Shown one piece after another: positions 40,737-42,278 of a stretch of DNA of 64,000 nt. A program made the translations under genes and the position numbers. Within the stretch, counting starts at the first letter, position 1. Each line of letters starts with the position of its first letter. The notes under the pieces are model-generated. The model was not told the DNA's origin, did not search any database, and saw only the letters and a list, made by a program, of their open reading frames with translations. This DNA comes from Alphaproteobacteria bacterium (GTDB lineage: Bacteria; Pseudomonadota; Alphaproteobacteria; Rickettsiales; 21-14-0-20-44-7): the NCBI GenBank assembly GCA_043757405.1, contig JAYVPI010000024.1, positions 16,412-80,411 on the forward strand, given 5' to 3'.

Positions 40737-42278
40737 ATGACCAATCAAATCAAAAATCAAAAATCAAAAATCAAAAATAAGCTGGGCGAACCCCTCCCCG
40801 CCTCTAAACACGCGGTTTCCGTCTCTTTGCCAAAATGGGCGGATGTGGTTGGCTATGAAACTTCCGAGCCAAGAGTCATCAATGCAATGAAAACCGGCTA
40901 TCCAAGATTTGTTTATAACCCAATCGTAAAAAAACTATTCGCCGCCGCCGAAAAGAAATTCGCGCATGAGAATGAATTCTGCCTGGCCTTCCCCTCTGCC
41001 CGCATCGCCGAATTAGGCAAAAAATTCTGTAAAACAGGACGGGTGGAAAAATTCAGCGAAGGAATCTACGCGCTCATATTACCCAAAGGCACCGAAAAAG
41101 AAGCCAAATCCTTCTGGCAACATCCCGGTTATATAATCAGCTCCCGCCAGGCCGAAGCCGCCCTAACCCAATCATCAATCATCAATCATCGATCATCAAT
41201 TGAAGCAAAGAGTAAAATCCGCGCCCATCTCGCCAGCCTCACCGGAGAAAGAACTGATAACATTACCCTCTATCCTTCCGGCATGGCCGCAATTTTCACT
41301 GCGTTTGAAATCATCACCCAATCTTCGTCATTGCGAGGAGGCAACGCCGACGCGGCAATCCATACTGGCGGCGCAAGTGAACCTGGATTGCTTCGCTCCG
41401 CTCGCAATGACGTAAAATATCCAACCATCCAGCTCGGCTTCCCCTATGTTGACACCTTAAAAATCCAGGAAAAATTCGGCCATGAAACAATTTTCATTTC
41501 TGACGTAAATGATTTCGCCACGCTTGAAAAAACCATAAAAGAAAAAAAACCAAGCGCCGTCTTCACCGAATTCCCCACCAATCCGCTAATCACATGTGTT
41601 GACCTCGAAGCTCTGAGCAACCTCTGCCGCTCTCATGGTGTCGCATTGGTAATCGACGACACATTAAGCACCTGGGCAAATGCCAGCACGATAGCCTATG
41701 CCGATATCGTAGTTTCCTCCCTAACCAAATTCTTCAGCGGCATCGGCGACGTCCTGGCCGGCTCGCTCATCCTCAACTCCAACTCCCCCTTATATAATCA
41801 ATTAAAAACTAAACTGGATTACATCTACGAAGATTTATTATATGGCGAAGACGCAATCGTGCTGGAGAAAAACAGCCGCAACTTTGAAGAACGAATCGCC
41901 AAAATAAACAACAACGCCGAACAATTATACGAATTCCTAAAATCGGCAATCGGCAATCGGCAATCGGCAATCCACTACCCCAAAGCCAACCAAACCTACG
42001 AAAAATACAAAACCCTCGGCTATGGTGGCATCATCTCCCTAGTCCTGCCAACGGAGACGCAAGCCATAAAATTCTACGACGCCCTAGAAGTCAACAAAGG
42101 CCCATCACTCGGAACCAACTACACACTCGCCTGCCCCTACACCCTACTCGCCCATTACCACGAACGCGACTTCGCCGAAAGCGCCGGCGTGCCATTCCAT
42201 TTGATAAGGGTGAGCGTGGGTTTAGAGGATTTCAGCGAGTTAAAAAATAAATTTGAAGCTGCGTTAAGAATACTGTAA
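40737..42278 (+). CDS. PLP-dependent Cys/Met-metabolism-family enzyme (cystathionine gamma-synthase-like) carrying four repeat insertions
   Basis: SSLTKFFSG looks like a PLP-lysine motif, with a typical C-terminus IRVSVGLED. The ORF stays intact despite the repeats. Confidence 0.65.
   Translation: MTNQIKNQKSKIKNKLGEPLPASKHAVSVSLPKWADVVGYETSEPRVINAMKTGYPRFVYNPIVKKLFAAAEKKFAHENEFCLAFPSARIAELGKKFCKTGRVEKFSEGIYALILPKGTEKEAKSFWQHPGYIISSRQAEAALTQSSIINHRSSIEAKSKIRAHLASLTGERTDNITLYPSGMAAIFTAFEIITQSSSLRGGNADAAIHTGGASEPGLLRSARNDVKYPTIQLGFPYVDTLKIQEKFGHETIFISDVNDFATLEKTIKEKKPSAVFTEFPTNPLITCVDLEALSNLCRSHGVALVIDDTLSTWANASTIAYADIVVSSLTKFFSGIGDVLAGSLILNSNSPLYNQLKTKLDYIYEDLLYGEDAIVLEKNSRNFEERIAKINNNAEQLYEFLKSAIGNRQSAIHYPKANQTYEKYKTLGYGGIISLVLPTETQAIKFYDALEVNKGPSLGTNYTLACPYTLLAHYHERDFAESAGVPFHLIRVSVGLEDFSELKNKFEAALRIL
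40743..40778. repeat. tandem heptamer array (ATCAAAA)n at the 5-prime end of the PLP enzyme gene
   Basis: aatcaaatcaaaaatcaaaaatcaaaaatcaaaaataa, read as NQIKNQKSKIKNK. Confidence 0.9.
41169..41200. repeat. tandem heptamer array (AATCATC)n inside the PLP enzyme gene
   Basis: caatcatcaatcatcaatcatcgatcatcaat, read as QSSIINHRSSI. Confidence 0.9.
41326..41412. repeat. CGTCAT-type palindromic element (P5), 87 nt, in frame
   Basis: cgtcattgcgaggaggcaacgccgacgcggcaatcc ... ggattgcttcgctccgctcgcaatgacg, read as SSLRGGNADAAIHTGGASEPGLLRSARNDV. Confidence 0.9.
41939..41972. repeat. tandem heptamer array (AATCGGC)x4 inside the PLP enzyme gene
   Basis: aaatcggcaatcggcaatcggcaatcggcaatcc, read as [12 protein letters not shown]. 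Confidence 0.95.

Follow-up and report, generated by a model that had tools for sequence, protein, structure and literature searches.

Four in-frame repeats in an apparently functional BesB/CndF-like PLP-enzyme gene of an alphaproteobacterium

Introduction

Rickettsia palindromic elements, as outlined in a review of MITEs, the miniature transposable elements with inverted repeats (Ogata et al. 2000, via PMC10969869), are about 100-150 nt long and are tolerated inside open reading frames (ORFs). Heptameric simple sequence repeats have been described from Xanthomonas (unit GGGAATC) and Nostoc (GGGGAYT) (Rehm et al. 2015, PMC4692102), and TAACTGA heptamer repeats from the Beggiatoaceae (MacGregor 2015, PMC4679880). 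In Xanthomonas, 83% of the heptamer positions are conserved between Xcc and Xac, and the preference for four units in Xanthomonas and Nostoc has been ascribed to G-quadruplexes (PMC4692102); under-representation of the arrays in coding DNA is reported in both papers, at 7-11% in Xanthomonas. Regulatory roles have been proposed for heptamer arrays in other bacteria (PMC4679880, PMC4692102). Here a gene for a pyridoxal 5'-phosphate (PLP) enzyme is described that carries one palindrome and three heptamer arrays within its coding sequence. The gene lies in a 64,000-nt stretch (the window) of contig JAYVPI010000024.1, positions 16,412 to 80,411 of the forward strand, from an uncultured alphaproteobacterium (assembly GCA_043757405.1) whose genome is a 1.86-Mb draft in 35 contigs, 91% complete.

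The protein resembles BesB, from a terminal-alkyne amino-acid pathway of Streptomyces (structure 9aua), and CndF, a fungal gamma-lyase (8zif). The reading favoured here, to which a probability of roughly 80% is given on the basis of sequence comparison and a structural model, is that the gene encodes a working BesB/CndF-like PLP enzyme and that its four permissive segments are resident sites for two kinds of repeat found genome-wide.

Repeat features of the gene

An original prediction, made from the sequence alone, had reported four repeats within this one 1.5-kb gene, all of them preserving the frame of an intact ORF. Three arrays called by Tandem Repeats Finder (TRF) and a palindrome of 87 nt were confirmed, the frame is open from end to end, and the peptides given for the repeats are correct. 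The coordinates are shown in Table 1.

Table 1. Features of the PLP-enzyme gene and its neighbours (positions in the window)
Feature	Position	Strand	Description
PLP-enzyme gene	40737..42278	+	intact ORF, 513 aa; BesB/CndF-like subfamily; N-terminal domain of ~140 aa
Site 1 array, (AAATCAA)4.6	40747..40778	+	period 7, 100% matches; residues 4-14, QIKNQKSKIKN
Site 2 array, (CAATCAT)4.6	41169..41200	+	period 7, 92% matches; residues 145-155, QSSIINHRSSI
Site 3 nested palindrome	41326..41412	+	87 nt = 29 codons, read as SSLRGGNADAAIHTGGASEPGLLRSARND; arms 41326-41337 and 41401-41412
Site 4 array, (AATCGGC)4.6	41941..41972	+	period 7, 100% matches; residues 402-412
BamD/YfiO-like lipoprotein gene	39907..40731	-	divergent, upstream of the PLP-enzyme gene; synteny anchor
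purL (FGAM synthase II)	42288..44474	+	downstream of the PLP-enzyme gene; synteny anchor

Each of the three arrays is about 32 nt long and in frame, and their units consist of AATC plus three variable bases. All three are oriented alike and are therefore unable to pair with one another. The arms of the palindrome, CGTCATTGCGAG and CTCGCAATGACG, are 12 nt each and 100% complementary; as RNA the element has a folding energy of -39.6 kcal/mol (z = -3.5), matched by none of 200 shuffles. Read directly from the sequence, the right arm holds TGA in one of the three reading phases, and the copy in the gene is translated in one of the element's open phases. No Rfam family was matched in 40400-42600 at E<=1.

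The placement of the repeats in the protein was taken from an AlphaFold2 (AF2) model, which has a mean predicted local distance difference test score (pLDDT) of 92 and a predicted template modelling score (pTM) of 0.91. Site 1 forms the N-terminal tail (pLDDT ~50 for residues 1-10). Site 2 comprises a loop (144-150) and the first turn of helix 151-169 (pLDDT 85-96) at the joint of the N-terminal and catalytic domains, where CndF has an unaligned stretch of ~50 residues. Site 3 (residues 197-226) falls within the loop that links helix 182-194 to strand 230-233; with a pLDDT of 45-49 at residues 201-220, the palindrome-encoded segment is modelled as a disordered surface loop. Site 4 runs from the last part of helix 383-405 through a loop into the beginning of strand 411-413 (pLDDT 89-96), and the residues encoded by its array belong, according to the model, to the fold. 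All four repeats occupy segments that are flexible or vary in length: the tail at site 1, the interdomain linker at site 2, the disordered loop at site 3 and a helix-to-strand connection at site 4.

Conservation of the gene

The original prediction had allowed that the gene might be recently inactivated, with stop codons not yet acquired. Four foreign-looking segments within one gene of this size would fit such a loss, whether the inserts or something else had caused it, and a canonical paralogue with a Pfam PF01053 match of 378 bits, encoded on the same contig outside the window (C24:97473-98609), could render the present copy dispensable. The conservation of the protein speaks against it. 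Thirty-four alignment columns are invariant among 92 family members, the query included, and hold K331 and S328 (SLTK motif), D307, R491 and G182 (SGMAA motif); the SLTK of the query lines up with TSLTK of CndF. From what is known of the cystathionine gamma-synthase (CGS) family, we take K331 to be the Schiff-base lysine in S-x-T-K, D307 the PLP-N1 aspartate, SGMAA (G182) the phosphate-binding loop and R491 the carboxylate-binding arginine. In a leave-one-out comparison, 96 columns show conservation of at least 90% among the remaining 91 members; the query agrees at 94 of them, which places it at rank 21 of 92.

Rates of change lead to the same view. The nonsynonymous distance (dN) to the nearest orthologues is 0.16-0.25 over 429 ungapped codons, the same range as among the orthologues themselves, and the ratio of dN to the synonymous distance (dS) is <=0.16, an upper bound only because dS is saturated or undefined in most pairs; relaxed selection was not seen. 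In a maximum-likelihood tree the root-to-tip distance of the query (0.79) is among the shortest in the clade (0.78-1.04), so that the branch is not lengthened. The fold is predicted confidently, with the inserts in loops, and those orthologues that bear similar arrays are likewise conserved and keep the synteny. Moreover, sucB-, iscS- and ubiD-like housekeeping genes of the same genome hold three arrays each. Neither stop codons nor a raised rate nor lost catalytic or conserved residues were found, and a pseudogene in waiting is considered highly improbable. Judged from alignment and model, the PLP-enzyme gene is conserved, structurally intact and apparently functional, without signs of decay, and its repeats have no detectable cost to protein conservation.

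Repeat sites in orthologues

The sites were compared in a codon alignment of the query with nine orthologues from metagenome-assembled genomes of uncultured alphaproteobacteria ("Alphaproteobacteria bacterium", "Rickettsiales bacterium"). The palindrome is missing from 9/9 orthologues, the query having a net gain of 31-32 residues at site 3, and the alignment shows it as a clean lineage-specific insertion, acquired once the lineage had separated from the relatives sampled.

The arrays occupy length-variable segments in which relatives hold other units. At site 1 the query is 8-9 codons longer than relatives starting MNNQ(L)PALGEPLP (~8 codons net); L084 has (AACCACG)4 there, and in L001, a locus of the same genus, a weak (CAATCAA)3.9 is found at the start codon. 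The site 2 linker has 13 aa in the query and is mostly 10-12 aa long in orthologues, so that the array adds only ~3 codons net. It reaches 22 aa in L082, with two other short heptamer arrays, and contains a weak (AGATTCA)4.1 in L083. The latter locus (51% identity) has arrays at sites 2, 3 and 4, the one at site 3 standing where the query holds the palindrome. The site 4 segment is 10 aa long in the query versus 5-11 in relatives (0-5 codons net gain), and is filled by (AACAATC)4.4 in L083, (GCTCAAA)5 in L001 and (ACGAACC)4.6 in L084; in all four lineages (query, L083, L001 and L084) the array terminates on one conserved Ile codon. Query and L083 are here of equal length with AATC in phase, the codons being AAA TCG GCA ATC GGC AAT CGG CAA TCG GCA ATC in the former and AAA CAA ACC ATC AAC AAT CAA CAA TCA ACA ATC in the latter. 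In more distant members of the family, site 4 is an ordinary stretch of ~8 residues, e.g. H-PEIKQV, and many orthologues are entirely without arrays.

Of the four separate insertions originally proposed, the palindrome stands as a recent one; the three arrays are better described as residents of array sites. The alignment shows these sites to be common to lineages, with other units in relatives, and sites 1, 2 and 4 appear to be long-lived or recurrent. The low-complexity segments, taken in the original prediction as acquired, seem to be ancestral at least at site 4. A scan of the site 4 flanks against a metagenome collection for copy-number variants in near-identical strains gave no matches.

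One further insert was seen in the loop homologous to site 3. Locus L002 (3001-4425, protein P0018), from a different alphaproteobacterial lineage, carries 27 residues there, TREGAQATEGKAIEAAKAARRLSAIK. This insert was rejected as a second palindromic element, as it folds no better than shuffles (z = -0.1).

The description of the gene as unusually tolerant or a hotspot is upheld by its purifying selection and intact structure and by an excess of repeats. In simulation, the probability that any one gene gathers four or more of the ~100 elements inside ORFs is 0.0065. Genes with at least three arrays number 4 versus 0.09 expected, the PLP-enzyme gene standing beside the sucB-, iscS- and ubiD-like genes. 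Across the loci of the nine relatives (113.5 kb), 9/11 heptamer arrays are inside the PLP-enzyme gene, although it accounts for just 11% of the sequence (binomial P = 1.3e-7). That the gene is a real repeat hotspot, in its own genome and in relatives, is supported by these figures.

Repeats across the genome

Among perfect arrays of at least 21 nt, 54 have period 7, far more than chance would give, and any other period from 2 to 12 accounts for 0-7. At a threshold of 24 nt the genome holds 212 heptamer arrays, with 84 of them within ORFs, 90 intergenic and 38 on ORF edges, and a length mode of 30-33 nt in all contexts. AATC or GATT occurs within 69 of the 212 units versus ~5% expected. The commonest unit, AATCGGC, forms 35-38 arrays (30/35 inside ORFs), typically (AATCGGC)4AATC with unrelated flanks; it was found in the query genome only (0/40 related genomes). 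Neighbouring arrays have a common unit in 35 pairs versus 9.5 expected, and when more than 200 nt apart in 15 versus 6.9 (P = 0.0015).

Five more arrays of the AATCGGC/GATTGCC type are present in the window, at 6997-7029, 7246-7276, 54295-54325, 54335-54367 and 59263-59293. Those at 54295-54325 and 54335-54367 form an inverted pair (hairpin), located within a minus-strand ORF of 482 aa (C24:69624-71069). The iscS-like (C5:24747-25925) and ubiD-like (C5:116328-117869) genes are 90 kb apart and have their three arrays each in both orientations, with identical or close units (GTTCACC / GGTGAAC / CCGTTCA / CTGTGAA), which fits regional sharing of units.

A genome of the same genus (G001, the source of locus L001 and protein P0007, with a PLP-enzyme protein ~64% identical) was sampled over 836 kb. 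It holds 45 arrays with the same length mode and a different favoured unit, AACTTAG (9/45). Both flanks were located in G001 for 30 of the 84 in-ORF arrays, and 25 of these sites were scorable (intervening segment of at least 15 nt). Clear arrays with other units were found at 4/25, against a background of 1.1e-4 of 30-nt windows (P = 1.8e-12). At one site pair a 12-residue query peptide faces TNQKSKIKNQKS, equal in length and with AATC in phase. On this evidence the array sites appear to outlast the array sequences, or else to be hit recurrently.

The palindrome belongs to a family of 59 loci found genome-wide by iterative nhmmer: 15 in ORFs, 9 at ORF edges and 35 intergenic. Lengths divisible by 3 are commoner in ORFs (9/16 vs 13/48, P = 0.036). 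The termini are conserved among family copies, and the flanks of 37 strict copies show only symmetric [TC]C...G[GA] extensions of the arms. The family was found in 12/41 genomes of the order; G004 has it and G001-G003 are without it. Because G001 favours AACTTAG and lacks the palindrome family, both repeat repertoires turn over within one genus.

The window holds two other copies of the CGTCATTGCGAG type, one at 20717-20797, which overlaps a minus-strand ORF (734 aa) at the ORF's 5' end, and one at 57721-57799, intergenic. About eight copies elsewhere (C19:50479, C19:58417, C19:182873, C22:284, C22:10941, C18:18472, C16:72370 and C31:16787) have longer common flanks, ATCTAACTAGC[CT]C ... GATGTGA[AG]AAT, and look part of a larger composite repeat because these longer flanks are conserved. 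Some of the long-flank copies measure 100 nt and include an additional hairpin inside.

Origin and maintenance of the repeats

Given that the genome is a draft, the repeats could be products of a misassembled or misbinned metagenome-assembled genome. Every repeat is in frame and below sequencing-read length, however, the same repeat classes recur at the same sites in relatives assembled independently by other projects, and 212 arrays with consistent properties are not made by an assembler. An artefact is hardly credible.

A function for the arrays, as cis-regulatory DNA or RNA sites or as selected peptide linkers, is another proposal, and slippage by single units could also give phase variation. 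The repeats are perfect or nearly so despite saturated synonymous sites, their length is tightly held at ~4.5 units, their positions are conserved across lineages, and regulatory roles have been proposed for heptamers elsewhere (PMC4679880, PMC4692102). Set against this, units vary freely by lineage at a single site, so that peptide and sequence are both unconserved, and many orthologues do without any array. Four to five copies in housekeeping genes misfit contingency loci, and the like orientation of the three arrays in the gene precludes their pairing. Selected function is considered unlikely.

The sites might also have been targeted, each being hit repeatedly and independently because array formation, and perhaps palindrome insertion too, favours particular DNA seeds such as AATC-containing codons, with neither an ancestral array nor mere tolerance behind the pattern. 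Arrays do abut pre-existing codons of this type, namely Ile ATC at site 4, AAC AAT CAA at the N terminus and, in L083, the ACA ATC CAA of T-I-Q next to the site 3 array; the excess of AATC/GATT among the 212 units points the same way. Site 3 is taken up by a palindrome in the query and by an array in L083, and L002 has an unrelated insert of 27 aa there. In G001, 21 of the 25 scorable sites are without an array, so gain and loss are frequent. Descent is nevertheless the simpler explanation where length is equal and AATC in phase, as at site 4 (query versus L083) and at C16:25251 (G000 versus G001), and the adjacent genes also have loops and AATC motifs, yet no arrays in relatives. Targeting is a possible account of the sites, if a somewhat doubtful one.

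For resident sites in a working gene, the following course is proposed. Arrays would nucleate on or next to codons that contain AATC. They would be kept pure, and their units could be replaced in concert, by slippage or by copying of the conversion type, both inside single arrays and from one array to another, and selection in ORFs would pass only stop-free units and frame-preserving lengths. The palindrome would have arrived by MITE-like insertion and been tolerated in the manner of Rickettsia palindromic elements. Some process must keep regenerating the arrays, because near-perfect arrays with different units occur in the same loops despite saturated synonymous sites. Simple whole-unit slippage was rejected as a sufficient origin, the net lengths relative to orthologues not being multiples of 7 or 21.

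A bolder version is put forward tentatively, with clearly less than even odds: the heptamer arrays of the clade would be long-lived residents of fixed sites, also inside essential proteins, that are rewritten by length-controlled (~32 nt) copying. If so, copying would impose a lineage-specific, regionally shared unit on many arrays simultaneously, and the loop peptide would periodically be swapped wholesale with position, length and reading frame unchanged. Such concerted evolution inside coding sequence would be so far undescribed and would imply trans-acting machinery.

Several observations weigh against resident repeats in a working gene. At sites 2 and 4 the net difference in length (+9 to +15 nt) does not agree with a simple gain of whole 7-nt units, and the ~32-nt length mode is also found in intergenic DNA, which free slippage with frame selection fails to explain. 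If ancestral, the arrays of the relatives are not independent, and the P value for the hotspot is weakened. The in-ORF censuses rest on a crude ORF calling of our own (1610 genes, 81.5% coding). For the palindrome, no direct repeats that would represent target-site duplications flank the 37 strict copies, and the Y1/RAYT transposase family PF01797 had 0 matches in the 91%-complete genome, with control genomes positive and no other parent insertion sequence searched for. The closest orthologue is only ~72% identical, which is why dS is saturated, and a very recent loss of function would escape the conservation, branch-length and dN/dS tests.

Gene identity and neighbourhood

The protein matches PF01053 (Cys/Met-metabolism PLP enzyme, fold type I) with 129.5 bits versus a cut-off of 27, over residues 245-510 only; the match is confined to this part because the palindrome breaks up the N-terminal half of the domain. 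The top NCBIfam model is BesB (NF042918), at 200.7 bits versus an equivalog cut-off of 800 bits. Being below that cut-off, the 513-aa protein is no BesB orthologue, despite the common architecture and fold. A profile built from 92 homologues matches the solved structures of CndF (2.5e-109) and BesB (5.7e-87) along almost the whole protein, the N-terminal domain of ~140 residues among it. Foldseek aligned the AF2 model to 9aua with a template modelling score (TM) of 0.85, the TM to 8zif being 0.70, and the PLP-binding motifs are conserved. Because the contig also encodes the canonical PF01053 paralogue, the gene is a second, divergent, BesB/CndF-like family member and not the sole enzyme of the CGS type.

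The gene order bamD-X-purL is retained around the orthologues. The YfiO/tetratricopeptide repeat (TPR) neighbour is kept in L081, L082, L083, L085, L086 and L087, and in L081, L082, L083 and L087 an AIRS/AIRS_C gene lies 3' of the orthologue, either immediately or with one or two short ORFs in between. In the window, the gap between the divergent bamD-like gene and the PLP-enzyme gene is ~5-25 nt, varying with the bamD start (40714-40737). No Shine-Dalgarno sequence is visible upstream of the ATG at 40737, and the sequence TATAAATCAAT[AC]AC[AT]ATG at the gene start is conserved with L001.

Comparison with known systems

The enzyme shares its fold and an extra N-terminal domain with BesB and CndF. 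It differs in having an identity of just 26-28% to them and in lying in a conserved housekeeping neighbourhood, bamD-X-purL, instead of a biosynthetic cluster.

The palindrome is closest to the Rickettsia palindromic elements. Both form dispersed families with a large share of copies in frame within unrelated housekeeping ORFs (here 15-16 of ~59-64 copies), where they are read through as extra surface-loop peptide, and the host is likewise an alphaproteobacterium with a small genome. Unlike the Rickettsia palindromic elements of ~100-150 nt, the elements here measure 67-107 nt; their sequence, CGTCATTGCGAG...GCAATCC...GGATTGC...CTCGCAATGACG, is different, and the family is patchy over the whole order. 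By analogy of behaviour, the palindrome appears to work like a Rickettsia palindromic element, and membership in the families RPE-1..10 is not claimed. Of MITE features, it has the terminal inverted repeats, in the form of its perfect 12-nt arms. With repetitive extragenic palindromic (REP) and REPIN elements it shares a doublet-like arrangement of short inverted hairpin-forming units, tens of copies and lineage-specific sequence types. It differs from them in that a quarter of the copies are intragenic, and from REP/REPIN elements with a RAYT also in that no Y1/RAYT transposase is detectable. A REP/RAYT account of the palindrome was rejected on the absence of the transposase.

The arrays agree with the heptamers of Xanthomonas, Nostoc and the Beggiatoaceae in a 7-nt unit, a preference for ~4 units, hundreds of dispersed copies, a genome-favoured unit, frequent inverted pairs and positions conserved among relatives. 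Unlike the units of Xanthomonas and Nostoc, those of the gene (AAATCAA, CAATCAT, AATCGGC) are not G-rich, so that G-quadruplexes cannot account for the four-unit preference here; since the preference recurs with units that are not G-rich, its source lies more probably in the mechanism that generates the arrays. The query genome also departs from the described groups in that many different units coexist, that orthologous sites change their unit between lineages, and that 40% of arrays, and 30/35 AATCGGC arrays, are in ORFs and translated, even though arrays overall are still under-represented in coding DNA here (40% in ORFs vs 81% coding).

The locus provides a clear case outside Rickettsia of selfish or self-propagating repeats translated within a conserved enzyme, with up to four in one gene. 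Inserts of this kind split Pfam domain matches and can mislead annotation and pseudogene calls in metagenome-assembled genomes. The repeats of the PLP-enzyme gene are a variant of known repeat kinds.

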